Assembly (NCBI GenBank): GCA_049969115.1 | Contig: JBMFPL010000001.1 | Coordinates: forward strand, 1-29,736 | Length of the DNA: 29,736 nucleotides | From: Bryobacteraceae bacterium | GTDB taxonomy: Bacteria; Acidobacteriota; Terriglobia; Bryobacterales; Bryobacteraceae | Direction of reading: 5' to 3' | Shown here: in pieces, positions 2 to 19,678 of the stretch | Position numbering within the stretch: position 1 is the first letter of the stretch | Layout of the letters: the number at the start of each line of letters is the position of its first letter | Made by a program: the position numbers and the translations under genes | Notes under the pieces: model-generated | The model's input: the letters and a program-made list of their open reading frames with translations, nothing else | What the model was told of the DNA's origin: nothing | Database searches by the model: none

Positions 2-487
2 AAGTCGCGGCCGAACTGGAGTTATCTTCTAGTGGGGAGAACGGCGCCGGAAGCGTCGGTCTTGCGAAACTTACCCAACGTGATCCTGCCGGGGCCCCAA
101 CCATATGAAAGCTTGCCGCGGTGGGCCTGCGTGTTTGACGTAGCCATTTTGCCTTATTTGCGGGACCGGCAGGGCTTGACGGCGAACCCGCTCAAGTTAC
201 GCGAGTATCTGGCTACGGGGAAGCCGGTAGTTTCGGTACCGACGCCCGCGGTAGAGCCGCTGGCTCACTGTGTGCGACTGGCGACCACCCCGCAAGAGTT
301 TCTCGACCAGATCGAGGACGCGCTGCGCAACGACACGCCGGGCGAGCGACGGGCCCGGCAAGCTGCGGTCGCGGGCATGAGCTGGGAAGCCCGTGTGGCC
401 GAGACTCTTGCCCTGATCCAGGAGGGACTGGCAAGGAAGAAGGCGCAGCGCGCCGGTGACGAGGCGCACACAGTCCGATCCCCATGA
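2..487 (+). CDS. GT4-type glycosyltransferase, C-terminal part (5' end is outside the window)
   Basis: Frame is open from base 2 (KSRPNWSYLLVGRTAP...). Motifs 'LPNVILPGPQPYESLP', 'FDVAILPY', 'NPLKLREYLATGKPVVS' (E-x7-E-like GT-B signature) and 'SWEARV' are typical of GT4 C-terminal domains. The stop overlaps the next ATG (ATGA at 484-487). Confidence 0.85.
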   Translation, partial: KSRPNWSYLLVGRTAPEASVLRNLPNVILPGPQPYESLPRWACVFDVAILPYLRDRQGLTANPLKLREYLATGKPVVSVPTPAVEPLAHCVRLATTPQEFLDQIEDALRNDTPGERRARQAAVAGMSWEARVAETLALIQEGLARKKAQRAGDEAHTVRSP

Positions 488-2547: not shown

Positions 2548-2719
2548 GCGTGAGGTCCCGCGATGGGGAAGTAACAAAGGGGCGCTGCGAAGGCCGGCGA
2601 GCCTGGGGCATTGGCAAGCAGGAAGTTTTTTTTGACGAAGACGCGCCGATTCGCGGGCCGGCACGGGACTGATTGACGAGGCCTCAAACGGCTGACGGGG
2701 CCGCCTGCCAGGAGCTCCC

Positions 2720-4042
2720 GTGGGCCGCAAAGAGGGAGGTGGACAAAGGTTGCCCCTGCTAACTACGGTGGTGCTGGTAGCGGTGATGTACCTGTCGCCG
2801 GTGGAGCTGGCGCCGGCGCTAGCGCCCTACCGGCCGGTATTGATCCTGTGTTTGCTGGGGCTGCCGGCAGCCGCGCTGGCAGCGGTGGCGAATCGTTTCA
2901 GTTTCCGGGCGCCGCAAATTTACCTGTTGCTTGGCTTCGCAGCGGCGGTGGGAATGTCGCGCATTTACCAAGGATGGTTGGGAGGGGCTTTGCGAGCGTG
3001 GGAGGACCTCGGTCCCGCGCTGGCCAGTTTCTTCATGACCGCCATCGTGACCAGCCAGATCCGGCGGCAGAAGATCCTGGCTGCAACCCTGGTAGGGATC
3101 GCGATTTACCTGGTGGGGCAGGGGGCGCTGGCTTACCATTACGGCTTCCGCGAGGACCAGTTCATCATGCTGGACTGGGAAGAAAGCGCCGAGGGCGAGC
3201 TCCAGAAGACGCTGCGGCGGATTTGCGGGGCCGGTTTCTTGAACGACCCGAACGACCTGGCCCAGAACCTGCTGATTGCACTGGCGCTGTTGGGCGCCTT
3301 TTGGAGGCGCGGGCGTTGGCTGGGCAATACAGTGCTGGTCGTGGTTCCGGCTTTGTGGATACTGTACGGGCTTGGCCTGACGCGCTCGCGCGGCGGGGCC
3401 CTGGGCCTGGTGGTGCTCGTGGCGCTGGCGGTGCGGGACCGGTTGGGAAGGCTGGGTTCATGGATTGTCAGCGGCATGGTACTGGCGGGGATGCTGGCTG
3501 CGAACTTCGGGGGAGCGCGCGCCTTGTCCCTGCGGGCAGCCTCCATTTCCGGGCGGGTGGAGGCGTGGTCGGCGGGCTTGCAAATGTTGAAGCAATCGCC
3601 GCTGTTCGGGGTAGGATACCGGGCGTTCACGGACTATCACGAGATGACGGCGCACAATTCGTTCGTGCTCTGCTTCGCCGAGACGGGCATGCTGGGTTAC
3701 TTTTTCTGGCTAGGCCTGTTAGTGGCGACGGCGCGAGATCTTGCGGTTCTTGCCGGCCTGTCGGCTGCCGATCCTGCGCAAGCGGCGGTGCGTCACTGGG
3801 CCAGGACGGTACGGCTGGCTTACTATACCTTTCTGACGACGGCGTGGTTTCTTTCGCGGACCTACATTCCCACGCTGTACTTGCTGATCGCCATGGGAGT
3901 GGGGCTGAGGGAGATTGCGCAGCGGAACGGCTGGGTGAAACTGCCCGGACTGGACCAGAAATGGCTGGCGATGACAGTCATCTTTCAGGTATTGACCGTT
4001 ACGGCCGTGTACGCGGTGGCACGGTTGCGATGGATGCAGTAG
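2720..4042 (+). CDS. O-antigen ligase / Wzy-like polymerase family membrane protein
   Basis: Many hydrophobic segments plus 'FLNDPNDLA', 'TRSRGGALG', 'SPLFGVG' and 'AHNSFVLCFAETGMLG' (Wzy_C/WaaL-like). AGGAG precedes the GTG; an alternative TTG start lies at 2749. Confidence 0.85.
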   Translation: MGRKEGGGQRLPLLTTVVLVAVMYLSPVELAPALAPYRPVLILCLLGLPAAALAAVANRFSFRAPQIYLLLGFAAAVGMSRIYQGWLGGALRAWEDLGPALASFFMTAIVTSQIRRQKILAATLVGIAIYLVGQGALAYHYGFREDQFIMLDWEESAEGELQKTLRRICGAGFLNDPNDLAQNLLIALALLGAFWRRGRWLGNTVLVVVPALWILYGLGLTRSRGGALGLVVLVALAVRDRLGRLGSWIVSGMVLAGMLAANFGGARALSLRAASISGRVEAWSAGLQMLKQSPLFGVGYRAFTDYHEMTAHNSFVLCFAETGMLGYFFWLGLLVATARDLAVLAGLSAADPAQAAVRHWARTVRLAYYTFLTTAWFLSRTYIPTLYLLIAMGVGLREIAQRNGWVKLPGLDQKWLAMTVIFQVLTVTAVYAVARLRWMQ

Positions 4043-4046
4043 CGGG

Positions 4047-5642
4047 TCAGGGCTCCGGGGCCAGCCAAGAAATTGCGCGGTTGACAGACAAGCGGAGGGA
4101 AGCGGGCAGGCGGCCTGTCCACTCGCGCAGGCGTTCGCGGTCGTCCGGTTCGAGGACGCGGCAGAAGCGAAGGCCCAGCGCGTAGACCGCGATGGCGGCG
4201 AGCACGGCGAGAGGGGGAGCGAGAGGGCCGCGGAGGCGCTCCACCAGCACGAGCGCAGCGGCGCCTGCACAAGCGGCGGCGAGCAGGATGCGGGCGAAGG
4301 GGCGCAGCGGGAAGCGAGCCCGGAATCCCTGGAGCGCAGCGAGCCAGGCAAGAAAGGCCGCGGCAGTCTGGGCAGCACTGTTGGCGACGGCCGCGCCCAT
4401 CGCGCCGTGGTGAGGAATCAGCAGAAAGTTGAGCAGAAGATTGAGAGCCGCCGCGCCAATCATGAGCTCGAGCAAGAGGCCCTGGCGGCTGGCGGCGACG
4501 AGAAAATCCTGGGCGGGAAACATGAGCGCCTTGGCGCTGGCGAAGACCGCGAGGAGAGCGAGCACCGGGATGGCGGGAAGGAAACGGGGGCCGTAGAGAA
4601 TGCGGACGATGGGATCGCTCATGGCGCCGACGCCGAAGCTGATGGGCAGGGCTGCGACGGCCATGAGCCGGAAGGCGGCGATGGTAAGCGCGGCGGCGGA
4701 TTCGGCGTCTTTTCCGATGCGAACCATCACCGAAGCGCTGACGGCGCTGACGAAGGCGCGGGGAAGCAGCAAGAGCCGCTGGGTGATATTGAAACCGAGT
4801 GAGTAGAAGGCCACCTGGCGGATGTCGCAGAAATGCTTCAGAAAGAGCATCTCGGAGCGGTCCCAGACGACGATGTCAAGCACTTGCAGGAGGCTCGCCT
4901 GGGCGCAGAACCTGCGCAGGACGGGCTTGAAGGCGGCGGCAGTCACGGCTCCGGCGCTGCACGCAAAGCCGGCGCCAGCGGCAAGCCAGCGACGAGCGTG
5001 GCGTGCGGCGTAATGGCGCCGCAGGAGCAGGTCGGCGGTGCGCTCGAACAGCAACGCGCCAGCCAGGCCAGGTAAATCCCAGCCCATTGCGAGCGCGAGT
5101 GCAACCCCGCTCAGGCCGAGGGCCGTGGAGGCGAGGGAGGCTTTGACGTTGCCGGCAAAATCCTCCACGGCAATATTCACGGCCGAGTACATGGCCATTT
5201 GCATGGCGGGCGCCAGGCTGATTACGGCCAGGGAAGCGTAAAGCCGGTGCCCGGGGGGAACCTTCCAGGCGACGACGAGCAACCCCAGCAGGACGACCAG
5301 GAAAGCCATAAGGGACTGCCAGCGCGACGTCCAACGCCAGATGGCGCGTGCCGTGAGCGGATCGCCGCGCCCCAAGTATTCGGCCATGTACTTGCGCGTG
5401 GCGAGCGGCACTCCGAGGGAAGCGAGGCGATTAGCGATGTTGCAAATGAAAAGGACGTAGTTGTAGTAGCCGAGCTTGGCTGGGCCCAGCAGGCGCGCGA
5501 TGGCGATGGAGCCGATCAAGGCCGAGACGAGGCCGGCCACGGTATCAAGGGCGGCGAGGACGGAATTACGTGCGATGACCCGGGCTGGCGAGGCAGTAAG
5601 GCTGGCGGGTGGGGAGTCTACATTCCGTTCCTGCTTGCTCAA
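4047..5642 (-). CDS. Wzx-type polysaccharide flippase (PST/MOP family)
   Basis: About 14 hydrophobic segments, with 'IARLLGPAKLGYYNY', 'GVATRKYMAEY'-like 'GVPLATRKYMAEY', 'QVAFYSLGF' and 'LNLLLNFLLIPHHGAMGAAVA'. The TTG start overlaps the upstream stop (TTGA, 5642-5639). Confidence 0.85.
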   Translation of the reverse strand: MSKQERNVDSPPASLTASPARVIARNSVLAALDTVAGLVSALIGSIAIARLLGPAKLGYYNYVLFICNIANRLASLGVPLATRKYMAEYLGRGDPLTARAIWRWTSRWQSLMAFLVVLLGLLVVAWKVPPGHRLYASLAVISLAPAMQMAMYSAVNIAVEDFAGNVKASLASTALGLSGVALALAMGWDLPGLAGALLFERTADLLLRRHYAARHARRWLAAGAGFACSAGAVTAAAFKPVLRRFCAQASLLQVLDIVVWDRSEMLFLKHFCDIRQVAFYSLGFNITQRLLLLPRAFVSAVSASVMVRIGKDAESAAALTIAAFRLMAVAALPISFGVGAMSDPIVRILYGPRFLPAIPVLALLAVFASAKALMFPAQDFLVAASRQGLLLELMIGAAALNLLLNFLLIPHHGAMGAAVANSAAQTAAAFLAWLAALQGFRARFPLRPFARILLAAACAGAAALVLVERLRGPLAPPLAVLAAIAVYALGLRFCRVLEPDDRERLREWTGRLPASLRLSVNRAISWLAPEP

Positions 5643-7033
5643 CGCTGTTCACCGTCAAGGCCTTGTGAACGCAGGCCGGTGAATACCACTACAGGCTGGA
5701 GTTTGCCGGCCGGCCCCGGTGGGATTCGGGGCACCGGCTCGACAACCACGGTAACTTCGCCAAGCACCTGTCTAAGTTCGGAGCGCAACAGAGAGGCGCT
5801 GGACGGGGATAGATCCCGGGACAGGACGAGGAGGAGCCGGACGCGTTGGGGAGATTCCTGGCGGACCTGGTACTGGAGAATCTCAGGGAATTCCTTGAGT
5901 AAGTGGACAAAGAACAGGCCGCTGACGGTCCGGCCTCCGGGAAGCCGGATCAGATCGGTGGTGCGCCCGAGGACCGGTTCCATCAGAGGCAGGCCGCGGC
6001 CGCAGGAACAGGGGCGGTGGAGGACGCGGCTAGCGTCGCCGATGGCGTAGCGGATGAAGACCGTACCCAGGTTGTGCAGGTCGGTGACCAGAACGTCACC
6101 GGGTTGGTCGGGAACAGCAGAGACAGTCTCGACGACGAGGTTTTCGATGTTGAGGTGCAGGCCTTCGTGTCGCTCGCACTCGGCGCCGATGGACATAAAC
6201 TCGCGGGAGCCGTAGGTCTCAAAAACAGGCGCGCAAAATATCCCGGCCAAGTAACTGCGGACGCCGGGCGCGAGCGGTTCCGCGGCAGTGATGACGGCGC
6301 GCAGCGAAGGCAAAGAAAGCCTGTGCTGTTCGAGATAGCGCGCGAAGCCCACGAGACTGGAGACGTAACCCACAAGGTAGCGTGGATGAAAGCGCCGCGC
6401 CTTGCGGAACGCGGCCTGCCAGAGAGCGTCATGCTGGAGCCAGGTGGGAACGAGGAGGCGGCGCTGGAGCACAGCGTGAGCCCGGTCTTTCAACCGGCTT
6501 GCGCGTGACTGCGAAGACAAGGGGGCGGCCCAGAGGTACATGGTGCGCTCGCCGGGCCGGCAGCCGGACCAGGAGTAAGCCCGGTGGGTGGCGGCGAGTC
6601 GCCAGTCGTAGCTTTCCCAGGTGCGGTAAAAACGGACGGGAACACCGCTCGAGCCTCCGGTAGCGTGGGGCATTCTCTCCAGCTCGAGGGAGACCGGGTA
6701 GAGTTGCTCGCGGAACTGGTTCACTTCTTCACGAGTAAGTACAGGGAGTTTGCGAAAATCGTCCCAGGTTCGGATGTCCTCGAGGCGTGCCCCGGCCCGG
6801 GCGTATTTGCGCTGGTAAAAGGGGACTGAGCGGAAAGCAACGGCGAGGAGCTTTTGCAGTTCTCCCCACTGGAATTCGAGGAGCCGGTCGGTGGGCCACC
6901 ACTGGGACTGTTCAAGAAAGGGACGGATGCGGTGGTAAGAGCGGCGGCGCGCCATGCTGCCTAACGGGAAGACGACGGCTTCCAGCAGGCGGCTATAGAG
7001 ACTCACTGGAACCCCATTGTAAGCTTGGTTCAT
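5639..7033 (-). CDS. Phenylacetate-CoA ligase-like (PaaK/CapK family) adenylate-forming enzyme
   Basis: P-loop 'HATGGSSGVP', 'PVFETYGSREF', 'ECERHEGLH', 'FIRYAIGD', 'CSCGRG' and 'GRTTD'. ATG at 7033 preferred; the ORF track starts at TTG 7045. Confidence 0.85.
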   Translation of the reverse strand: MNQAYNGVPVSLYSRLLEAVVFPLGSMARRRSYHRIRPFLEQSQWWPTDRLLEFQWGELQKLLAVAFRSVPFYQRKYARAGARLEDIRTWDDFRKLPVLTREEVNQFREQLYPVSLELERMPHATGGSSGVPVRFYRTWESYDWRLAATHRAYSWSGCRPGERTMYLWAAPLSSQSRASRLKDRAHAVLQRRLLVPTWLQHDALWQAAFRKARRFHPRYLVGYVSSLVGFARYLEQHRLSLPSLRAVITAAEPLAPGVRSYLAGIFCAPVFETYGSREFMSIGAECERHEGLHLNIENLVVETVSAVPDQPGDVLVTDLHNLGTVFIRYAIGDASRVLHRPCSCGRGLPLMEPVLGRTTDLIRLPGGRTVSGLFFVHLLKEFPEILQYQVRQESPQRVRLLLVLSRDLSPSSASLLRSELRQVLGEVTVVVEPVPRIPPGPAGKLQPVVVFTGLRSQGLDGEQR

Positions 7034-7069
7034 CGCGGTTTTCAAAACTTGTCGGGGCGTGAGGCGCCA

Positions 7070-8161
7070 TCAGCGCTTGCGCCCCAGGGTCTGGCAGTAC
7101 AGACGGAAGTAATCGCCCGCCATACGTTCGAGGGTGAAGTGGCGGGCGTGGCAGTTGCGGGCTGCCTGGCCGAGGCTGAGACGCCGCTCCGCGTCCCGCG
7201 CCAGTTCCAGGATAGCCTGAGCGAAAGCATCAGGTCGGGAAGGAGGAACCAGACGCCCGGAGCCGCAGCACCGTATGACCTCGGGCATGCCGCCGACCTC
7301 AGTCACAATGGCCGGGAGACCGACCGCCATGGCCTCGAGCAGGGCGATGGGGACGCCCTCCGACAAGGAAGAGAGAACGAACACGTGGGAACGGGCCAGC
7401 CAGGGTCCCACATCGCTGCGCTCGCCAAGCAGTTCCACCCGGTTGCGCAGACCCAGCTCCGTGATGAGTTTTTCCAAACGGGGGCGTTCAGGACCGTCCC
7501 CAACGATCCACAAGGAAAGGCCAGGCAAGGCGGGGGCAGCCAGAGCCACCGCCCGCAGCAGATTGGCAAAGTCCTTGATGGGATCGAGGCGGGCCACGGT
7601 GACGAGACGGAAGGCGTTGGGATCCCCAGGCGCGTGGAGGACGCCCGGGGGGATAGAAGGGGCAGCGGCCCCGTTGAGGATGACGGTAAGCTTCGAAGGA
7701 CAAGCCCAGGGAGCGGAGGCCAAGCGTTGCGCGGCGGAACGGGAAACAGCCACGACGTGATCGCACAGTCGTGCCGCCAGCCAGAACTTGCGCTCGGTCG
7801 CTGCCGGGGAGAGGCTGCCGCCGTGGCGCGTGCTTATCACACAAGGGACGCGGGCGAGCCTGGCCGCGGGCGCGGCCAGCAGTGTGGGGCCTACATTGTG
7901 ACAGTGAACGACATCGGGCCGTGACTTGCGGAACAGACGGAACAGTTGCACCAGAGAACGAAGCGGCGCAGAAGATGCGTGCGAATGAACGGGGATACCG
8001 CGAGCGGTAAGTTCCTGCGCCGCGCGCCCCAGCCCGGCGACGGCGTGAGCGGCCACACGGTGCCCGGCGGCGGCCTGGTGGCCGGCGAGCCAGCAAAGAA
8101 GGGTTTCGGCGCCGCCGACCGTCAGCCCAGTAATCACGTGATGGATCGAGAGGGTGCGCAT
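7070..8161 (-). CDS. GT4 family glycosyltransferase
   Basis: 'HVITGLTVGGAE', 'PDVVHCH', 'VARLDPIKD', 'IVGDGPER' and 'SSLSEGVPIALLEAMAVGLPAIVTEVGG'. Start set at ATG 8161 (MRTLSIHH) because the 40-aa upstream extension in the ORF track is not protein-like. Confidence 0.9.
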   Translation of the reverse strand: MRTLSIHHVITGLTVGGAETLLCWLAGHQAAAGHRVAAHAVAGLGRAAQELTARGIPVHSHASSAPLRSLVQLFRLFRKSRPDVVHCHNVGPTLLAAPAARLARVPCVISTRHGGSLSPAATERKFWLAARLCDHVVAVSRSAAQRLASAPWACPSKLTVILNGAAAPSIPPGVLHAPGDPNAFRLVTVARLDPIKDFANLLRAVALAAPALPGLSLWIVGDGPERPRLEKLITELGLRNRVELLGERSDVGPWLARSHVFVLSSLSEGVPIALLEAMAVGLPAIVTEVGGMPEVIRCCGSGRLVPPSRPDAFAQAILELARDAERRLSLGQAARNCHARHFTLERMAGDYFRLYCQTLGRKR

Positions 8162-8538
8162 GCAGGGGTCACGCAGGTGGTAGGTCGCGAGCCAACCGGT
8201 TGGAGGCCAGGCTAAGGAAAGTTTGGCTCGGGGGCGCCAGGCTTGCGGGAGATTTCCAGCAGTAGCTGGGCAGCACGGCACGCGCCGGCGGCCCGAGGCG
8301 CGGGTTTCGGCGCAAGGTGCGGCGAAGGGCCTTCACGTGCGCAGTGTAGCAAACGGGGGTGGAGTAGCGAACGGGCGGCAGAAGGCAGGGTTCGACTTTG
8401 CGCAGCGGCCAAGCGAGTGGGGCGAGTCACGAGGCGTGTGTGGGCAGAAGTCCTTGAAAGTTCACGGATTAGAACGGCTTGCCGGGAAAGGAAGGTCGGG
8501 AGTGGCGAGTAGGCTGGCATCAGGAGGTTTTGCGCCCG

Positions 8539-10185
8539 ATGAAAGTACGCTGGTATGTGGCGCTGGCGGTTGTTCTTGGCTTCTACCTGCGCTTTTGTCT
8601 TTCTCAGACCAGAGTGGATCTGGGGCGGCAGGGCAAAAATGTAGATTTTTCCGGGGCCGAAAAAAGCAAGCCGTTCCGGAGCGGCGCAGCACTGCCAGCC
8701 TCTTGTGAGACGGGGGAGGCGTTTTTGCAAACGGGTGAAGGAACCGAGCAGACCCTGTACGTGTGCCCCACTCCGAACAATTGGGTCGCCGTTGGCAAGG
8801 AACTCCCGAGCGATGGGAAAGGACCGGGGAAGGCCCTTTTGGCCGGGGATAGCGGTTTGCAGTGGGCCGAGGCGGCGGGGGACGTTAGCGGGCGGTTCAC
8901 GGAGCTGAGCGTGCGCGCCTTGCGAGGGCGTCCTGTGAGCGACACGGCGCCCAGCGATCGGGAGGTTCTGCGGTGGAACGCTGCTCTCGGCCGGTGGGAA
9001 CCGGCGAGCGGGGCTGGTGATTACCAAGCGGGCGGGGGCGTACTCATTGCCGGGACCAGCATCGCCGTGGACGCGGCCACGGTACCCAACTATTATCTGG
9101 GGACGGGGAATCCCTCCGGGGACTGTGCACCGGGACGAGAGTACTATCTGGACACCGCGGGCGGGCAACTATACTATTGCGCGGCAGCGAACTCGTGGCA
9201 GGCGGTGAGCAAGCGGGAGCACAGCCACAGTTGGGGATCCCTGACCGGGAACCTGACAGACCAGACGGATCTGGTCGCGGCGTTGAACGGCAAAGCGGAC
9301 TTGTCTCACGGCCATGCCGTTGCGGGTGATCTCACGGGCACGGTGAACGCGGCTACGGTGGTGAAGATCCAGGGAAGGCCAGTTGCGGCGAGCGCTCCGA
9401 CGGACGGCGCGGCGCTGGTATGGAACGGCACGAGCCAGCAATGGGAGCCGGGCACTGTTTCGGGCTCCGGGGCGGGATTCGACGCGTTGGACACCCAGGT
9501 GCTGTGGTTACGCGAAGAATTTTGCAGCGGTGGGGGTTCGTCGGGGACCGTGGGGGCGCTCGGATGGGCATACACGACCGCGGGCACAGGAGATACTCTG
9601 ACATTGTCTTACGGAAGTTCTGCCCATCCCTGCGAGCTCAAAGGCATCGGCGTGACCTCGACCGCGGCCAACGATTACCGCTCGCTGTACCTGGCGAACC
9701 CCATGGGCGTGCTCCATTCGGGCGGCAGGACGGTTCCGTGGAAAGCGGTGTTCATTTTCATGCCCAAGGGGGCGGCAACCGAGTTGAGAATGCGCGTCGG
9801 GTTCGGGGGTTATGCGCCGGCGCTGGTTCCTACGGAGTTCATCGGTGTGAGGCTTGACCACGATGCCAACTGGGACGGGTCGTCGGCCACGAACCTGATT
9901 GCCTGTGTCTGCAACGATGCGCTGAAAACTGCCTGCACGGACATTGACACGGGAGTGGCCCTGCAGATTGACACTTACTACAAGCTGACCATGTGGAGCG
10001 ACACAGCCGGAGTGATCAGCATGTCCATCAATGACGGAACGCCGGTGACGTTCACTAACCCGTCCACCTTGCCAAATACGACGAAGACTCTCCAACCGCA
10101 TTTCATCATGGGCCGAACGGGCGGCACGGGGACGCGGTCGCTTTACCTAGATTTCTTTGCTGCCAGGAGGGCGGTGACGCGATGA
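8539..10185 (+). CDS. Secreted fibre-like protein with phage tail-fibre-style repeats and a C-terminal beta-rich head (hypothetical), 548 aa
   Basis: SD CAGGAGG at 8521-8527 and ATG at 8539. Signal-peptide-like N-terminus (MKVRWYVALAVVLGFYLRFCLS|Q). Two internally duplicated modules and two HxH motifs. The CDS is secure; the function is inferred. Confidence 0.75.
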   Translation: MKVRWYVALAVVLGFYLRFCLSQTRVDLGRQGKNVDFSGAEKSKPFRSGAALPASCETGEAFLQTGEGTEQTLYVCPTPNNWVAVGKELPSDGKGPGKALLAGDSGLQWAEAAGDVSGRFTELSVRALRGRPVSDTAPSDREVLRWNAALGRWEPASGAGDYQAGGGVLIAGTSIAVDAATVPNYYLGTGNPSGDCAPGREYYLDTAGGQLYYCAAANSWQAVSKREHSHSWGSLTGNLTDQTDLVAALNGKADLSHGHAVAGDLTGTVNAATVVKIQGRPVAASAPTDGAALVWNGTSQQWEPGTVSGSGAGFDALDTQVLWLREEFCSGGGSSGTVGALGWAYTTAGTGDTLTLSYGSSAHPCELKGIGVTSTAANDYRSLYLANPMGVLHSGGRTVPWKAVFIFMPKGAATELRMRVGFGGYAPALVPTEFIGVRLDHDANWDGSSATNLIACVCNDALKTACTDIDTGVALQIDTYYKLTMWSDTAGVISMSINDGTPVTFTNPSTLPNTTKTLQPHFIMGRTGGTGTRSLYLDFFAARRAVTR

Positions 10186-13100
10186 GCCGATGGTGGACGA
10201 TTTTCTGGCTGGCAGCGCTCGCACAGGGGCAGATGCTTCGCCTGCGGTACGGCGGGCCCCAGTCCTTGTATCACATTACGAGCATATCGGGCGGCTCCCC
10301 CGCAGTGCTCACGGTGAAGAATCATGTCACGTGGCAGCAGCAACACGATTTTGCGAACGGAGATGTGATTTACATCCAGTTCGTCGGGGGCTGTGCGGAA
10401 GCGAACGGGTTCCGGAAAGTAGTCAACTCGAATCAGCAAGGCGGCACGTTTAGCATTACTGATCTGGATGGAACCCCGATCGCCTGCTCCTATCCTTACC
10501 AGAGCGGCTTCGAATCGGGCGTGGTGGGCAAAGTGGGAGAGTACACGCTCCGATCCAGCAGGCCGCGCGTTTTCCTGCCCGGCTCGGGACCGTTGCTAGA
10601 GCGTTCGAAAGACCCCGATGGCAACGGGCCCCAGGTAGCCCCAGTGGTGACGGAGAACGATTACCCGTGGCAAGCGATGGTCGCCAAGTACGCGGCCTAC
10701 ATCACGGAGGGTTGTGACGGCCGCACGCCGTCGTTGTGTCCCAACGAAGAGGCGATGATGGACGCGGGCGACGCGTCGGGCAAGCTGGGCTACGGCGCAC
10801 ACGCGGCAGCTTACATCTGGTTTGCGGACAACTCCAAAACCGGTTACCTGACCCTGGCCCGTTACATGATCAACAACCTCGAGCGCGCGATGTTGCAGAA
10901 TACCTCCGGAGTGCGGCCGGGGTTTGGCTTTCCCTGTGACGTCACCACGAACTCCTGCGGTTGGGGCTCGGGATGCGACTGGCTGTCCATCGGCATGTGG
11001 CATTACAGCCTGGCCTATGACCTGATCAGAGACCAGCTTACCGATGCCGAGCGGCAGGCGTTCGCGAAGAAGATGCTGAACGGGTGGGGCGGAGAGTATG
11101 AGTGTTCGAACCAGCTCACCAGACAGAACGGCTCCGCAAACCTGACGTCCGGGTCGCACGCGGTGACCGGTTCCGGCTTCTCCGTGTACTCTCCGGGTGA
11201 CGGAGTCTATTTCAAGACCTCGATGGCCTGGGGAGCCTTGGGACGGTGGGGGCAGGTGGTCTCGGTCTTGAGCGACAGCGAGATGACGGTGAATTTCATT
11301 ATCGGGACGAGTAAGACCGCAGCTTCCGATGTGACGGCCAGCAATGTGGATCACTACAAGGTGATGCCCTGGAGCGAAACTCGGTGCGGAGCGGCATTTC
11401 TGGCGGGAGGCCAAGGCCTGGCATACAACGTGGGAGGGGCTGTGATCCAGCGAGCGATAACTTACCTGGCGAGCGCCATTGACGCCTCCCAGACGAGGGT
11501 CCAGGTCACGCATGCGGGAGGGTTCCCTGCCCCGCCATTCTACGTACTCGTCGAGAACGAGGTTCTCAATGTGACCGCGGTAAACGGCACCGAGTGGACA
11601 GTAGAGCGGGGCAAACTGTACACGAGCGCGGCACCCCATGCAACGGGCAAAGCGCTGGAATACAGCAGCCAGACCTCGGGCGGCTCGTTTGCACTGGCCG
11701 GGCCGCGGGCACTGGCCGGAGAGTGGTTCCACAACTTGACGGCCCAGAAGGCAGTCGGATATATGGTGACCGCCTTTGTCCTGGCGGGGGACGACCCGAG
11801 AGCTGCCGATTACGCGGAGCGGATCTGGAACTGGTACTACGACACGGTTTACGTAACCAACAAGGAGTACTGGTCGGGGCCCACCCAGGGGGGTCTGCAA
11901 GACCAAGGCTACCAATTAGGGCGGTGGCAGGCCAACCAGATCTGGGCAGGGCTGGTGGGGCGGAACGCGTTCGCGGGCAGCGGCATTGATTTGCTGGAGC
12001 AATACTTCTGGCGCGGGCTTACGACGATCCTTTTGTGGACGCCCCCTAACGGGACCGATCACTGGAGGAGAATGCCGGAAGAAGTAACGACGGGCAATCC
12101 CTACTCAACGAGGAACGTCGGGTGGGCGGCGGCCGCCGCGACCTTATGGCCATCCACGGAGGCCCAGTATGCGCAGTACTGGCTGCGCAACCTCAGCGGC
12201 CTGTTCCCGAACCCTGACGGCGCCCATTCGGTTCTCTATGCGGCGTACAGCCCGGCGAATTCGTCGCAGAGGGATTTCCGGTTGGAACTGCCGCCGTGGT
12301 CGTTCCACATGGATACGGATTTCAATGCGACGGCTTATTACGGGCTGCTGGTGAGCAGGCGTGATTGGAGCGAGACTTCCGGGATGCTGGTGGCGGGGGC
12401 CGGGTGGAACTGGCCGACGGACCACACGGTGGACCAAGGGATGTACTTGCCGGGCGGATACACGATTTTCAAGGGTAGCAAGCTGCTGTTCGGTTGGGAC
12501 AACGCGTATGGCATAGGAGGAGACCTGAACACGAGCCCATGGTTCAGACTTGGAGGCTCACTTAAGAGCATCACTCATCCGCCGTGGACGTCGCTGGCTT
12601 CGGGAGGACAGTACAACCAGATTGACCGCAGGCATGGCGACGGGGTGTACGTGTATGGTCGCGGGAACTTCACGGCATCGTGGCAAGCGGCTTCAAAAGT
12701 CTTGCGGCATCACCGGCATTTCTTGCACGTAAAGAGCGATCCGGAGTATGTGATCATATTCGACGACGCCGCCATGGGCGCGGCCTTGCAGGTAAAGACC
12801 AACCTCAATTACTTCCTGCGGGGAGATACGGCGCAGACGTTCTCGGCGTCATCCGACTATCGTGACATCGTGTTCAAGAAGCCGACCGAACCGGGAGCGA
12901 TGGTTTCGACGAAGCTGCTATTCCCGGACGGGTCGGAGCCAACGATTACTTATACGCAGACATCGTACAGTCACAAGTTGACGGTGGACTGGGGGAGCGT
13001 AGCCTCGGCCCAAATGATCACAATCCACCGTCTGGCTTCCGGGACGGCAGATGCGATGCCTACGGTCGCCCTACTGCAAGGGCTGGACGGGGGTTCGGTG

Positions 13101-14198
13101 GGTTTCGAGGCGCTGGACGGGGCGGATCCGCTGGCGGTGGTTTTCTCGCGCGATGGCATGGACCGGACCGAATGCGCTTTTCGCACCAGTTTCCCGCGGC
13201 GCGGGCGAATTCTGGTCACCGGGCTTGCACCGGGTGAATACCGAGTGTACCGTGATGGCCGGGAAATCAGCACAACTCCCGTGGCGGTAAGTGCGGGGGA
13301 TGGGACCCTTTATCTGGAAGGAGAGGCAGGCAACTACCTGGTGAGTGGAGTTCCGCCAGCCACTCTGGCCGTAGATCCGCTAAGCCTCAGGTTCGAATAC
13401 ACGGTGGGAGGAGAAGCGCCGGGGCCGCAGACATTGCGGGCGACGTGCACCGGCGGCACCTGCACCGTATCGGCGAGCGAGGATTGCTCGTGGCTGGCGG
13501 TGTCGCCGCAGAGCGGCTCGACTCCGGTGGACTTCCGGGTTAGCGTGGATCCACAAGGGTTGCCCAAGGGAAGCTATTCCTGTGCGGTGACGGTGAGCGC
13601 GATCGCCCTGAACAGTCCCCAGCAGGTGGACGTCACGTTGAATGTGGCCGAAGCAGGGGGAGGCACGGGCGGCGAACTATCGGTGGAACTGATCGGAGCT
13701 ACCAGCCGGAGGTTGCTGGTGCGCTACGGCGGACTGTATCTGAAGAGGCAGGATACATGCCGGTTAGAGGTGAGCGACAGTCCGGCCTGGGAGCGGATCC
13801 TGGAATCACTCGAGGATAGTGGAGGGCTGGCGCGGCGAGTGCTGGCGTTGGGCGCGGCAGGAACGTTGCAGCCGGCGACGGGCTACTATGTGCGCGCCGT
13901 TTGCGGGTCGAACGCCAGTGCAATCCCAGCGGCCACCAAGCCCGAGGCTACAGCGCAAGCCCGTCGGGTCGCTTTCCTCCTATCGCCGCCAGCGAAACTG
14001 GGGGCGCAATGGCTGCGCCTAGAATACGGTTACGGGCCTGAGCTGGGGCAATTGGTCACGCAGTCCTGCAATTCAGAGGGCTGCGCCATGGAAGTGGAAG
14101 TCGACTCCGACCAGCTCCTCTACTTCCGCTACGCGTACTTGGATGGCTCAGGACGGGAACTGGCGCACAGTGACGTGAAAGCGGTCGCCGTGCCGTGA
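10182..14198 (+). CDS. Large secreted mosaic protein: heparinase II/III-like (polysaccharide lyase-like) scaffold, inserted beta modules, BACON-like domain and C-terminal domains, 1338 aa
   Basis: SD CAGGAGG and ATGA overlap with the upstream stop. Signal-peptide-like N-terminus. 'SLAYDLIRDQLTDAERQAF', 'YGLLVSRRDW', 'DH..D.G..GYTIFKG' and 'HRHFLHVKSDPEYVIIFD' resemble heparinase II/III-type proteins. 'LAVDPLSLRF...SWLAVSPQSGSTP...VSVDPQGL..GSY...VTV' (13365-13646) is BACON-like. Confidence 0.7.
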   Translation: MSRWWTIFWLAALAQGQMLRLRYGGPQSLYHITSISGGSPAVLTVKNHVTWQQQHDFANGDVIYIQFVGGCAEANGFRKVVNSNQQGGTFSITDLDGTPIACSYPYQSGFESGVVGKVGEYTLRSSRPRVFLPGSGPLLERSKDPDGNGPQVAPVVTENDYPWQAMVAKYAAYITEGCDGRTPSLCPNEEAMMDAGDASGKLGYGAHAAAYIWFADNSKTGYLTLARYMINNLERAMLQNTSGVRPGFGFPCDVTTNSCGWGSGCDWLSIGMWHYSLAYDLIRDQLTDAERQAFAKKMLNGWGGEYECSNQLTRQNGSANLTSGSHAVTGSGFSVYSPGDGVYFKTSMAWGALGRWGQVVSVLSDSEMTVNFIIGTSKTAASDVTASNVDHYKVMPWSETRCGAAFLAGGQGLAYNVGGAVIQRAITYLASAIDASQTRVQVTHAGGFPAPPFYVLVENEVLNVTAVNGTEWTVERGKLYTSAAPHATGKALEYSSQTSGGSFALAGPRALAGEWFHNLTAQKAVGYMVTAFVLAGDDPRAADYAERIWNWYYDTVYVTNKEYWSGPTQGGLQDQGYQLGRWQANQIWAGLVGRNAFAGSGIDLLEQYFWRGLTTILLWTPPNGTDHWRRMPEEVTTGNPYSTRNVGWAAAAATLWPSTEAQYAQYWLRNLSGLFPNPDGAHSVLYAAYSPANSSQRDFRLELPPWSFHMDTDFNATAYYGLLVSRRDWSETSGMLVAGAGWNWPTDHTVDQGMYLPGGYTIFKGSKLLFGWDNAYGIGGDLNTSPWFRLGGSLKSITHPPWTSLASGGQYNQIDRRHGDGVYVYGRGNFTASWQAASKVLRHHRHFLHVKSDPEYVIIFDDAAMGAALQVKTNLNYFLRGDTAQTFSASSDYRDIVFKKPTEPGAMVSTKLLFPDGSEPTITYTQTSYSHKLTVDWGSVASAQMITIHRLASGTADAMPTVALLQGLDGGSVGFEALDGADPLAVVFSRDGMDRTECAFRTSFPRRGRILVTGLAPGEYRVYRDGREISTTPVAVSAGDGTLYLEGEAGNYLVSGVPPATLAVDPLSLRFEYTVGGEAPGPQTLRATCTGGTCTVSASEDCSWLAVSPQSGSTPVDFRVSVDPQGLPKGSYSCAVTVSAIALNSPQQVDVTLNVAEAGGGTGGELSVELIGATSRRLLVRYGGLYLKRQDTCRLEVSDSPAWERILESLEDSGGLARRVLALGAAGTLQPATGYYVRAVCGSNASAIPAATKPEATAQARRVAFLLSPPAKLGAQWLRLEYGYGPELGQLVTQSCNSEGCAMEVEVDSDQLLYFRYAYLDGSGRELAHSDVKAVAVP

Positions 14199-14277
14199 GC
14201 CCGGAGGCGGCTTGAGCGCGCGGGTAGCTCCGAGGTAGAACGCGGGACCTTGTTGCATGCCGGCTGGCGATGCCCTG

Positions 14278-14982
14278 CTATTTCTTGCCGCGGCGGACGC
14301 ACCCCGGGAACGTTTTCTCGAGCTTGTGAACCTTGGGCGCGGATTGGGTGAGAATATAGGGGTTGGCTGGGTTACGCCGGGCGAAGTCCTGGTGGTAGTC
14401 CTCGGCGGGATAGAAGCCCTTCAGAGGCTCCAGGCGGGTGACGATAGGGCGGGAGAAGACCCGCGCCTGCTGAAGCTGGCGGATGTAGGCCTCGGCGACA
14501 CGGCGCTCTTCTTCGCTGGCGTAGAAAATCGCCGACCGGTACTGCGGCCCGTTGTCAGGTCCCTGGCGGTTCAATTGGGTAGGATCGTGGGCGACAGCGA
14601 AGAAGATTTTCAGCAACTGGCCGTAGGAAATTTTGCGCGGGTCATAAGTGATGCGCACTGCCTCGGCGTGCCCGGTTGTACCCGTGCTGACCAGATCGTA
14701 GCGGGCTGTGCGCTCGTCTCCGCCGGCGTAGCCTGCGACAACATCGAGCACGCCTTCCACCTGCTCGAAAACTGCCTCGACGCACCAGAAACAACCGCCG
14801 GCCAGGACGGCGGTGCGTGACGAAGCGCGGACGGGGGCCGGCAAGTCTTCCGACGGGTCAGGGAAAGCGGCGCTGTTGGCGCCGGTTTTGACCGGTTGCG
14901 TGACGGGTGAATTGGTCGCATTCATGGCAAGGACACCGAGCACCAGAAGCGCCGCAGGAAGGAAGTCGGCAGCTTTTTTCAT
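14278..14982 (-). CDS. msrA: Peptide-methionine (S)-S-oxide reductase with N-terminal export signal
   Basis: '[11 protein letters not shown]', 'GYAGG', '[13 protein letters not shown]', '[22 protein letters not shown]' and 'FYPAEDYHQ'. Hydrophobic N-terminus followed by a Pro/Thr linker. Confidence 0.95.
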
Positions 14983-15018
14983 CCACCAGATGAGATGAGC
15001 GAGGGGGAGGTCCGGTCG

Positions 15019-16107
15019 CTAACGAGGGGGCGCGGAGCTGGGCGGGACCACATCGTCCACCGGAGGTTCGGGTTCTTCCTCCTCCGGGTTGTCGTCCGGG
15101 CGAGAAAACACGATCTCCCAGGCGGAGATGCCGTGCAAGTAAAAGCGCGCCACGTGGCTGGCCAGACTGTCTGTCTCACCTTCCAGCAGACCGACGACCT
15201 GGGGATAGTAACCAGGTGGACGATCCATGATTTTCGTGGGCGTAGACCAGCCCAGGGGATCGGAAACGTCCGGGTTAAAGCTCACATAGACACCGGCGGC
15301 AGGCCAACCGGGTTCGCAGCAGGCATGGTTGAGCAGGACCACATAGCTTTCCAGATACGAGTTCCAGTGAATGGAAGGTCCCCAAAAAGCGTTGGCATGG
15401 GCTTGCTGCCAAGGGGTGGCGACGGGGAAGATCGGGGTGAGCCGGCCACCCAAGCCCGGTTCGGACCAGTCGCCGCGGAAGTATTTCCAGACGGCCCCGA
15501 CGGGATTCTTGCGGTCCTCGAACGCCATGCGCGCCAGACCGATACCCTGCGAAGAGGCCTCGCCGCCATAGTTGCCGAACAGGAAATAGAAAAACTGACG
15601 GTCGCGGTCCACAATCACGGAGAAATCCCCGTGGCCGCCGGCGAAAAAGCCGTTGCGCGCCGAGCAATCGGGCGGGTCGGGCGAGGTGAGAATGAGGCCC
15701 AAATCCTGGAAGCTGTGGCCGCCGTCGTAGGAGACCAGGGCGCCGATGTGGGGCATGACGAGGTCGGTACCGGTGCAGACACGGGGCTGCTCGTAATGGT
15801 ACCAGGCATACACGGTCCCGTCATCGTCCACCCAGGCGGCCTCGATCCACATGGGAAAGTGTAGGTCAGAATCCACGCGGACCGCCTCCGAACTGACGGG
15901 CGCGAACTGGTTCACGCCCCAGCTCAGCACCGGAGCGCCTGCGGAGTTGAAGACGTGAAACTGACCGTCCCGCCAGAAGACCGGGCTATTGGAATCCACC
16001 TGGGCGGGCATCCAGACGGAAGGCGCTGGGCGGAGGCGGGCGGACTGCCCCAGGACGGTCAAAGAAAACGCCAGCACCGACAGCGATTGGATCCAAAGCC
16101 GCTTCAC
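15019..16107 (-). CDS. Secreted hypothetical protein, possible five-bladed beta-propeller glycosidase-like fold
   Basis: SD GAGGGGAG, signal peptide (..LTVLG|Q) and repeated aromatic beta strands ('WIEAAW', 'VYAWYHYE', 'GDFSVIVD', 'FWGPSIHWN'). Acidic/Pro-rich tail. The fold is inferred. Confidence 0.6.
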   Translation of the reverse strand: MKRLWIQSLSVLAFSLTVLGQSARLRPAPSVWMPAQVDSNSPVFWRDGQFHVFNSAGAPVLSWGVNQFAPVSSEAVRVDSDLHFPMWIEAAWVDDDGTVYAWYHYEQPRVCTGTDLVMPHIGALVSYDGGHSFQDLGLILTSPDPPDCSARNGFFAGGHGDFSVIVDRDRQFFYFLFGNYGGEASSQGIGLARMAFEDRKNPVGAVWKYFRGDWSEPGLGGRLTPIFPVATPWQQAHANAFWGPSIHWNSYLESYVVLLNHACCEPGWPAAGVYVSFNPDVSDPLGWSTPTKIMDRPPGYYPQVVGLLEGETDSLASHVARFYLHGISAWEIVFSRPDDNPEEEEPEPPVDDVVPPSSAPPR

Positions 16108-19273: not shown

Positions 19274-19324
19274 GGGCCGGTGGCTGGAACTGCGGCCTTG
19301 CAGCAAAGCTGGGAGGATTTTTGG

Positions 19325-19678
19325 ATGCGTGGAATAGCCAGGGTTCTGATTGCGTTTTGCGTCGCGGTGAGCGTGGGCGCGGTGGCTGCGCAACAACAGA
19401 AAAAGGCTCCGGAGAAACTGGTCTTCGCCGCCAAAGTGGGTAACGTGACCTTCCTGCACGCCAAGCACGTCGAGCGTGAGAAGGGAGATTGTACGGTTTG
19501 CCACGACAAGCTGTGGCCGCAGGATGCCAAGGCCCCGCTGAACTACAAGCAGGGGATGCACAAGCCGGCCGAGGCGAAGAAGACTTCGTGCGCCGCATGC
19601 CACGTAGCGGGCGGGAAGTCCTTTGCCACGACGGGCAACTGCAACAAGTGCCACGCCAAGCCGGGCGCGAAGAGCTGA
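19325..19678 (+). CDS. Periplasmic triheme cytochrome c7 (PpcA-like), 117 aa
   Basis: Signal peptide, 'GNVTFLHAKH', three CxxCH motifs (CTVCH, CAACH, CNKCH) and an extra His in 'GMH'. This gives six His for bis-His ligation, in the c7 order. Lys-rich. SD GGAGGA precedes ATG 19325. Confidence 0.85.
   Translation: MRGIARVLIAFCVAVSVGAVAAQQQKKAPEKLVFAAKVGNVTFLHAKHVEREKGDCTVCHDKLWPQDAKAPLNYKQGMHKPAEAKKTSCAACHVAGGKSFATTGNCNKCHAKPGAKS

Follow-up and report, generated by a model that had tools for sequence, protein, structure and literature searches.

Exported processing enzymes encoded within the cluster of the exopolysaccharide (EPS) that they act upon are known from several bacteria, among them AlgL (alginate), ExoK and ExsH (succinoglycan), PslG and BcsZ. 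Phages carry capsule and EPS depolymerases, including the K5 lyase KflA, which has a chromosomal relative, ElmA, in Escherichia coli, and the Klebsiella depolymerase cassettes; classical depolymerases are β-helix trimers that are built into the virion and have no signal peptide. To our knowledge, no processing cassette of an EPS cluster is known to circulate in phages as well. Here we describe two adjacent genes, A and B, at positions 8539-14198 of a 29,736-nt contig from a Bryobacteraceae bacterium (GenBank assembly GCA_049969115.1, contig JBMFPL010000001.1; this whole stretch is called the window below). A encodes a tail-fibre-like protein and B a candidate heparinase II-like polysaccharide lyase. 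They appear to form a translationally coupled, Sec-exported pair that would be an inherited part of a Wzx/Wzy-dependent EPS locus in a hot-spring genus of the Bryobacteraceae. Our preferred reading, to which we give a probability of about 0.6, is that the exported lyase and its lectin-like fibre partner process the uronate polymer of their own locus and that phages borrow the cassette as a type-specific depolymerase.

The A-B pair and its exopolysaccharide cluster

Both genes lie on the + strand, each behind its own Shine-Dalgarno sequence:

8521-8527, + strand: Shine-Dalgarno sequence CAGGAGG of gene A, 11 nt upstream of its start
8539-10185, + strand: gene A, predicted exported tail-fibre-like protein of 548 aa; ATG at 8539, stop at 10183-10185 (open reading frame (ORF), orthologues, PHROG tail matches, BFVD matches)
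10164-10170, + strand: Shine-Dalgarno sequence CAGGAGG of gene B, within the 3' end of gene A, 11 nt upstream of the B start
10182-10185, + strand: start/stop overlap ATGA of A and B, 4 nt (read from the sequence; kept in orthologous loci)
10182-14198, + strand: gene B, candidate exported multidomain heparinase II-like polysaccharide lyase of 1338 aa; ATG at 10182, stop at 14196-14198 (Pfam, model, Foldseek, VIA-align)

A search of 5.8 billion proteins returned about six close homologues of A and about eighteen of B, and a profile search of 1.84 billion representatives yielded about 138 B-family clusters at E≤1e-30, of which some 30 are full length. The same Wzx/Wzy-cluster genes flank A-B in eight Bryobacteraceae loci, namely the window and seven others (P0022, P0024, P0026, P0027, P0028, which is G412, G590 contig 35 and the short G590 contig 122). 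Seven of the eight have the gene order Wzy - Wzx - CapK-like - GT4 - (ATP-grasp or GT4) - A - B; six of those seven, the window being the exception, continue after B with GFO/epimerase - GT if the contig is long enough. On the short contig 122 of G590 (7.5 kb), the order is GT4 - A - B - GFO/epimerase. Flanking proteins are 69-73% identical to those of the window for Wzy and Wzx, 68-71% for the CapK-like and GFO/epimerase proteins and 56-57% for GT4; in the same comparison B is 59-62% and A 51-52% identical. The pair has thus diverged roughly in step with its flanks, a pattern that fits co-inheritance.

Four other genomes have full-length B homologues that are more remote (27-34% identity). 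Three of these genomes were examined (G538, G174 and G192); there the remote B gene adjoins CapK-like, GT4, Wzx, Wzy, GFO/epimerase or epimerase genes, and in G174 an A-like gene also lies upstream of it. A further remote B, P0064, sits on a 92-kb chromosomal contig (L048) among methyltransferases, three glycosyltransferases, an initiating sugar transferase and a UDP-sugar 6-dehydrogenase. Conserved synteny with EPS genes was therefore observed at eight close and four remote loci. A reading made earlier from the DNA letters of the window, the sequence-only reading, had tied the pair to EPS synthesis by its position facing the cluster. The tie proves stronger than was proposed: homologues of A and B are linked to each other, with the 4-nt overlap kept, and lie within the same Wzx/Wzy clusters. 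In the window itself the pair merely seems to face the cluster, because there is no ATP-grasp gene and the GFO/epimerase-GT block stands on the opposite side. The flanking genes of the window are these:

2-8161, both strands: Wzx/Wzy-type EPS biosynthesis genes, whole block (Pfam matches; the same genes flank A-B orthologues)
2-487, + strand: glycosyltransferase (GT) fragment (Pfam)
484-2547, + strand: fusion of GFO_IDH_MocA and NAD-epimerase (Pfam)
2720-4042, + strand: Wzy_C polymerase/ligase-like protein (Pfam)
4047-5642, - strand: Wzx flippase (Pfam)
5639-7045, - strand: CapK/PaaK-like adenylating enzyme (Pfam)
7070-8161 (ATG start) or 7070-8281 (longest ORF), - strand: GT4 glycosyltransferase (Pfam)
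8162-8538, no strand: divergent intergenic region between GT4 and A, 377 bp with the GT4 ATG at 8161; includes the CAGGAGG of A

For GT4, the in-frame ATG at 8161 is the most likely start, and the protein then has 363 aa like its orthologues; the divergent gap would be 257 bp if the longest ORF were taken. Several descriptive statements of the sequence-only reading were borne out here: two large genes, each with a CAGGAGG and joined by ATGA, diverge from the GT4-PaaK-wzx block across a gap put at about 380 bp (377 bp by our count), and no capsid, terminase, integrase or tail genes are found among the ORFs of the window. Between GT4 and A, an ATP-grasp gene is present in four of the compared loci (L001, L002, L039 and L040), a second GT4 in L042 and no gene in the window; the lack of a gene at this position and the block on the opposite side show that the EPS locus has been rearranged here.

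The window is a complete contig of a 3.77-Mb metagenome-assembled genome (MAG; 91% complete) whose relatives are Bryobacteraceae MAGs. Its remaining ORFs are of housekeeping type (MsrA, an ABC exporter, a racemase, RibF, a GTPase, a transketolase-like protein, a two-component system and a c7 cytochrome). The last is a small multihaem protein at 19280-19678 (+ strand; Pfam Cytochrome_C7, E 2.5e-10). Long ORFs overlap on opposite strands at 14995-16107 (289 aa on the + strand, 362 aa on the - strand), with no match in Pfam or PADLOC. The shared promoter region from which the sequence-only reading expected co-regulation with EPS synthesis found no confirmation: a promoter and terminator scan of 8100-14500 gave no sigma-70-like consensus promoter in the divergent gap, and the number of sites over the scanned region was not above that of shuffled sequence. 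Upstream regions of the orthologues, aligned for six loci, are poorly conserved; a GTGC(C/T)TAGGATGAGGCTGG-like element is loosely shared by four of the six and is absent from the window.

Three further observations concern the homologous loci. The G590 MAG holds two A-B cassettes (contigs 35 and 122, loci L032 and L033), both EPS-flanked, with B proteins 66% and 55% identical to that of the window and A proteins whose C-terminal domains are of different types; this could reflect two EPS loci or a mixture of strains in the bin. Just upstream of the remote B in G538 (L035:13588-14208, - strand) is an ORF of 206 aa with a signal peptide and a PEP-CTERM-like end (VPEP, a hydrophobic stretch and basic residues), which hints at an exosortase-linked EPS locus. 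An RHH/PIN toxin-antitoxin pair lies inside the orthologous EPS locus of the P0024 contig (L040:15409-16118).

Two alternatives bear directly on this gene context. An inert remnant of a prophage once inserted in the EPS locus might account for the existence of phage relatives and for the position of the cassette at the edge of the cluster in the window. This candidate was rejected, as the window contains no phage genes, and it is close to refuted: both ORFs (548 and 1338 aa) are intact and keep their Shine-Dalgarno sites, 4-nt overlap and signal peptides, and seven other loci are equally intact at 50-66% identity, with dozens of residues invariant. A cassette aimed outward, attacking the EPS of competitors, or at phages, stripping or masking the cell's own EPS receptor against adsorption, is very improbable. 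The patchy occurrence of close orthologues in the genus (three of five species representatives) and the hypervariable alleles, common to phages, would suit it. It is opposed by the fixed position of the cassette in a biosynthetic cluster and its divergence in step with the flanks; moreover, no immunity or regulatory partner was seen, and neither A nor B matches the PADLOC defence models at E≤0.01. Within the genus, no close B orthologue was found in one genome that is 96% complete and one that is 81% complete, and among about 140 sampled genera of the family no other has a close B orthologue.

Export signals and folds of A and B

Signal peptides were judged by a rule-based scan for n-, h- and c-regions in A, B and about 30 homologues, with six cytoplasmic proteins of the window as controls. 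The predicted signals are:

8539-8604 (aa 1-22), + strand: signal peptide of A, predicted cleavage between CLS and QT (n/h/c-region heuristic; alignment with homologue sites between AQ and T(R/K/Q)(V/I/L)DL)
10182-10223 (aa 1-14), + strand: signal peptide of B, predicted cleavage between ALA and QG; conserved mature start xLRLRYGGP

A begins with MKVR, followed by a hydrophobic core of 13 residues and the CLS site; B begins with MSR followed by WWTIFWLAALA and the QG of the mature start. Both N-termini thus have the basic n-region, the hydrophobic h-region and the small residues at -3 and -1 that mark Sec export. The same pattern (basic start, hydrophobic core, small-x-small site, then Gln) recurs in the homologues, and the cleavage motif always stands directly before the start of the mature protein, which is invariant (QT(R/K)(V/L)DLGRQ for A, xLRLRYGGP for B). 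Every A and B homologue examined has it, phage-borne and remote ones included, and the six control proteins do not, so that the signal-peptide-like N-termini seen in the sequence-only reading are upheld by rule and by alignment. A lipoprotein nature of A was considered and rejected by eye, since LRFC is unlike a lipobox. B has conserved cysteine pairs at 71/102, 178/186, 252/259, 308/402 and 1089/1094; among the ten cysteines of A are pairs within its repeated modules. Being paired and conserved, these cysteines are consistent with disulfide bonds formed outside the cytoplasm.

Six full-length orthologues of A (50-53% identity) were compared. Its parts downstream of the signal peptide are:

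8683-9450, + strand: shaft of A (duplicated modules and HxH motifs, read from the translation)
9481-10182 (aa ~315-548), + strand: ConA-like/SO2946-like C-terminal β-sandwich of A, 'type 1', ending ..GRTGGTG..DFF.. (model; Foldseek against the Protein Data Bank (PDB))

Two modules of A are duplicated, one with a Cys pair (aa 49-82 and 188-220) and one of the form GD(V/L)(S/T)G...QGRPV...W..W.P (aa 113-155 and 262-304); the internal repeat is also visible as a second BLAST high-scoring segment pair. HSH and HGH motifs fall within aa 228-259, the second being present in all six orthologues and the first in four. The monomer model has an overall predicted local distance difference test (pLDDT) score of 61.6, with about 80-90 in the C-terminal β-sandwich. 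The best Foldseek match in the PDB was 2a5z, SO2946 (E 7.5e-8), followed by legume lectins and the jelly rolls of polysaccharide lyase (PL) family PL7. At E≤1e-3, BFVD gave 254 matches, most of them to proteins of uncultured Caudovirales that are labelled as ConA-like, Mtd N-terminal, SO2946-like C-terminal, phage tail repeat or T7 tail fibre, and an Atlas feature search, which is a lead only, returned viral Mtd_N-type clusters. PHROG tail families match both A and B, and two interchangeable types of C-terminal domain occur among A homologues. With its repeats, HxH motifs, lectin-like tip and viral structural relatives, A has the architecture of a fibre, as had been proposed; by the model it would be a tail-fibre-like protein with a lectin-type tip, and it is probably trimeric. 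A is fibre-like, yet we do not class it as a virion protein, because the window has no phage genes and the proteins have signal peptides.

The AlphaFold model of B covers residues 1-1075 and was built from an alignment of 16 sequences (pLDDT 73, predicted template modelling score 0.69). Its domains are:

10233-10550 (aa 18-123), + strand: N-terminal β domain (secondary structure of the model; weak matches to PHROG major-tail and E1_FCCH)
10590-12251 (aa 137-300 and 508-690), + strand: (α/α) toroid in two halves (model and fold match)
aa 312-495, + strand: β insert that splits the toroid (model; PHROG tail fibre phrog_38058 match at aa 427-494)
12297-13346 (aa 706-1055), + strand: β-sandwich domains with a HepII_C-like end (HepII_C E 1.1e-5; profile match to heparinase II)
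13365-13652 (aa ~1062-1157), + strand: BACON-like domain (Pfam BACON_2 below threshold; many BACON_2 proteins match this part)
13659-14195 (aa 1160-1338), + strand: FN3-like C-terminal region (FN3-type clusters in the Atlas feature search, score 0.88, a lead only)

The toroid and antiparallel β-sandwich of the model are those of the heparinase II/III-type lyase class. Foldseek placed heparinase II first (E 1.9e-19), followed by PL15, PL17, PL12 and PL33 lyases and dermatan-sulfate epimerase. VIA-align against heparinase II (2fuq) gave a Z of 32.3 over 630 aligned residues at a root-mean-square deviation of 4.1 Å and 14% identity; next came PL17, PL15 and PL12 lyases (Z 18-23) and dermatan-sulfate epimerase (Z 19.4). 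By sequence, the family profile of B matches heparinase II chains (E 7e-6), Pfam HepII_C scores 25.8 bits against a cut-off of 26.1 (E 1.1e-5), NCBIfam HepB scores 15.7 bits against a cut-off of 600, and BACON_2 is below its cut-off both for the whole protein (E 0.0019) and for the fragment (E 2.2e-4). The lyase-like character that the sequence-only reading had assigned to B is therefore a polysaccharide-lyase fold; with no family match at curated thresholds, we file B as heparinase II-like by fold and not as a member of PL21. Within the β insert, a β module of about 70 residues (aa 424-494; 11451-11663 of the window), which carries the PHROG tail-fibre match, recurs as a repeat unit, in 5 to 29 copies, in giant proteins (1,900-7,500 aa) of the representative library.

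Across 19 B-family sequences, down to 27-34% identity, Asn518, Tyr577 and Arg581 in the second half of the toroid and Asp747-His748, Tyr760, Lys764, Tyr823, Arg827, Arg845 and His849 in the β-sandwich are invariant; His517 is missing in two of the 19. The spacings (Asn518 to Tyr577, +59; Tyr577 to His748, +171) and the Tyr-x-x-x-Arg motif resemble those of the catalytic Asn/His, Tyr(+Arg) and His of the lyase clan.

Alternatively, B might be an exported uronyl C5-epimerase that modifies the polymer, with A as its glycan-binding partner, instead of a depolymerase. Lyases and epimerases have proton-abstraction chemistry in common, and the role would be like that of dermatan-sulfate epimerase or of AlgG in alginate synthesis; dermatan-sulfate epimerases are among the structural matches, and gene B is part of a biosynthetic cluster. 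From Acinetobacter K loci, heparinase-like proteins (GnlB) have been described whose role is uncertain and may be biosynthetic (preprint 10.64898/2026.07.20.739706), and they speak for the same view. We nevertheless consider an epimerase improbable: heparinase II, a true lyase, is by far the best match (Z 32.3, against 19.4 for the epimerase), and phages keep the cassette by endolysin/holin genes and swap it as a variable module, which fits degradation of a barrier.

Phage-borne copies and the direction of exchange

The phage relation suggested for the pair is real, as B homologues are carried by phages: three are shorter (P0032, P0033 and P0035; 1175-1183 aa, 52-60% identity) and a fourth, P0062, is longer and remote. 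P0032 is on L005 (IMG/VR UViG_3300005573_001292, handle G001; 34.8 kb, 36% complete), which has a T4-like replication module (SbcCD-like nuclease, clamp loader, UvsX-like recombinase, SSB, DNA polymerase, primase and DnaB-like helicase). Directly after its A-like and B-like genes come those for lysozyme, an S8 peptidase, two small proteins predicted to be exported and a holin. P0033 is on L004, a sister phage of L005. The runs at L004:664-10489 and L005:1185-8729 include an S8 peptidase with a hydrophobic N-terminus and two small proteins with signal-like N-termini, and look like exported, envelope-acting late genes; in L004, three extra genes follow B, one of 547 aa with a weak G8-domain match. 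On L046, a tail fibre (phrog_4201, E 7.5e-67) precedes a 220-aa A-like protein, which has a signal peptide and the N-terminal module of A, and then come B-like, endolysin, exonuclease and dNMP kinase genes. L006, which carries P0035, reads endolysin-like, DUF2460-like, A-like, B-like and J-like tail protein, a tail-tip module.

All phage copies retain the signal peptide and the cysteine pairs, which sets them apart from classical tailspikes assembled in the cytoplasm. The sequence-only reading had contrasted the pair with phage relatives that have no signal peptides, and this part of it falls. The FN3-like C-terminus of B is present in the chromosomal copies and in P0062; in P0032, P0033 and P0035 it is replaced by a common basic tail of about 20 residues (QLRGG..K..R.G.K.K). 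That the three have the same tail and polyphyletic catalytic parts implies recombination close to where the BACON domain ends, and a role of the tail that is specific to phages. No exact match of at least 22 nt was found between the phage loci and the genome of the window, except one of 25 nt inside gene B.

In a maximum-likelihood tree of B, built from its first ~1065 residues, the chromosomal allele of G590 contig 35 is the sister of P0032 and that of P0024 the sister of P0033, each with support of 100/100; both pairings sit within the clade of EPS-locus copies, and P0035 lies near the base of that clade. Monophyly of the phage copies was rejected at a cost of 210-217 log-likelihood units (approximately unbiased test, p 1e-10 and 2e-5), the test having been run after the tree was seen and the phage and chromosome labels coming from gene context alone. 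In the wider tree, where contexts were established for about 15 of the roughly 30 full-length clusters, both deep clades include EPS-context copies, and phage copies appear at four scattered places. P0032 is 80% identical to a chromosomal allele. Of ten proteins compared between the backbones of L004 and L005, most are 88-98% identical and three are lower (66-81%); the B proteins are 69% and the A-like proteins 47% identical, so that the A-B cassette is the variable spot of otherwise ~90% identical phages. The simplest reading would be repeated host-to-phage capture followed by recombination within the cassette.

The opposite direction was the one first proposed, with virion modules re-used by the cell: a phage tail fibre and depolymerase would have been captured, given signal peptides and fixed in the EPS locus, and the phage copies of today would represent the donor lineage. 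Much about A suggests such a history, since its structure and feature matches are mostly viral and it has traits of tail fibres, namely HxH motifs and C-terminal domains that are mosaic and swappable. The PHROG tail matches of both proteins, the place of the L006 cassette between tail-tip genes, the presence of phage copies at four places in the tree, deep ones included (P0035 and P0062), and a slight dip in GC content over gene B (0.59-0.62 against 0.63-0.68 nearby) point the same way. The tree argues against it, with EPS-locus copies in both deep clades and P0032 and P0033 nested, with full support, among chromosomal alleles as scattered tips. Phage copies also keep signal peptides and paired cysteines for which a virion protein assembled in the cytoplasm has no need; the scaffold of B is a typical cellular lyase fold and not the β-helix usual in tailspikes; and no prophage genes are left in any chromosomal locus examined. 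Domestication is thus unlikely for the pair as it stands and still plausible for the deep origin of A, for which a phage source is possible.

The phage-borne proteins, fibre- and depolymerase-like with Sec signals and encoded before lysis genes, may be exported lysis-accessory enzymes. Somewhat more speculatively, host and phage may have an 'EPS key' in common, a host lyase with its fibre partner that phages deploy off the virion, as exported lysis-cassette enzymes beside endolysin, S8 peptidase and holin, so that the pair dissolves the slime from the infected cell outward as a release factor or a receptor-destroying activity; conversely, A might once have been a phage protein that became fixed in the EPS machinery. 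We put this forward tentatively.

Proposed role and comparison with known systems

According to the reading that we prefer, in which the pair processes the polymer of its own locus, A and B would act jointly after export, in the periplasm or at the cell surface. B would be a heparinase II-type β-eliminase that cuts the uronic-acid-containing polymer of the locus, its core being decorated by modules of glycan-binding type (the N-terminal β domain, the β insert, BACON and the FN3-like tail), and A would bind or position the glycan for B. The effect could be trimming, control of chain length, release, or clearance of misdirected polymer, as for AlgL, ExoK/ExsH and PslG. Phages would take up the cassette repeatedly, signal peptides included, as a type-specific EPS depolymerase beside endolysin/holin or tail-tip genes, and would do so because it is specific for one EPS type.

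Several points weigh against this reading. B is below the Pfam and NCBIfam thresholds of every lyase family, HepII_C alone being near, and its fold is also used by dermatan-sulfate epimerase; Asn518, Tyr577, Arg581 and His748 are candidate catalytic residues picked by invariance and spacing only. The shaft of A is poorly modelled, with low pLDDT. The sole uronate-synthesis gene found in this genome sits on another contig, and the sequencing runs that contain the window stretch are all of hot-spring metagenome DNA, none of RNA. A surface location of A and B is a guess, as Sec export leads only to the periplasm in a diderm cell. The patchy distribution of close B orthologues in the genus would also fit a mobile cassette, and whether the cassette was ancestrally chromosomal or phage-borne is not settled for the deep nodes, above all for A.

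If the reading holds, the locus would show, at the level of sequence, one type-specific degradative cassette common to an EPS biosynthesis cluster and to lytic phages, which bears on the origin of phage depolymerases and on the co-evolution of capsule or EPS type with phage host range. Phage copies with signal peptides by lysis genes could represent a non-virion, exported class of phage depolymerase. The B family, with its ~138 clusters at E≤1e-30 and none at curated thresholds, is a very divergent heparinase II-like family of thermophilic Acidobacteriota and would be a candidate for a new PL family if activity were shown. The literature searched, a limited library, contained no description of the B family, nor of host-to-phage capture of EPS-locus lyases in Acidobacteriota.

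Among characterised enzymes, heparinase II (HepB, PL21; PDB 2fuq and 3e7j), together with PL15 (Atu3025), PL17 (Alg17c) and PL12 (heparinase III), has the same overall fold as B, with a last domain of HepII_C type that is detectable by sequence. B differs from this group in that its toroid is split by a β insert of about 185 aa and that it has additional N-terminal β, BACON and FN3-like parts. It is only 14% identical to 2fuq, below all curated thresholds, and its gene stands beside that of a fibre-like partner in a cluster for EPS biosynthesis and not in a catabolic locus.

Tail fibres (T4 gp37-type, Mtd_N and SO2946-like C-termini) resemble A in their HxH motifs, repeated shaft modules and exchangeable C-terminal β-sandwich. 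A, by contrast, has a cleavable-looking signal peptide and conserved cysteine pairs and is encoded in a bacterial EPS cluster without virion genes nearby. Phage depolymerases and A-B are alike as type-specific degrading modules that are swappable in otherwise similar phages and have homologues in host chromosomes. Against the classical depolymerases, B stands out by its toroid lyase fold, a conserved predicted Sec signal and disulfide-type cysteine pairs, and the cassette by its position directly before the endolysin in two phage lineages.

The closest functional counterparts would be AlgL, ExoK/ExsH, PslG and BcsZ, which appear to be like B in having their gene in the cluster of the polymer itself, a signal peptide and a presumed action on that polymer. 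Their folds (PL5 and the glycoside hydrolase families GH16, GH39 and GH8) differ from that of B, and none has a coupled tail-fibre-like partner. The sequence-only reading is thus supported on apparent export, the fibre-like A, the lyase fold of B and the link to EPS, and not supported on the direction from virion to cell and on signal-less phage relatives; in calling the pair an undescribed system it overstated the case, as an exported EPS-degrading enzyme within a biosynthetic cluster is a known design. By this comparison, what would be new on that design is the fibre-like partner and the circulation of the cassette in phages.

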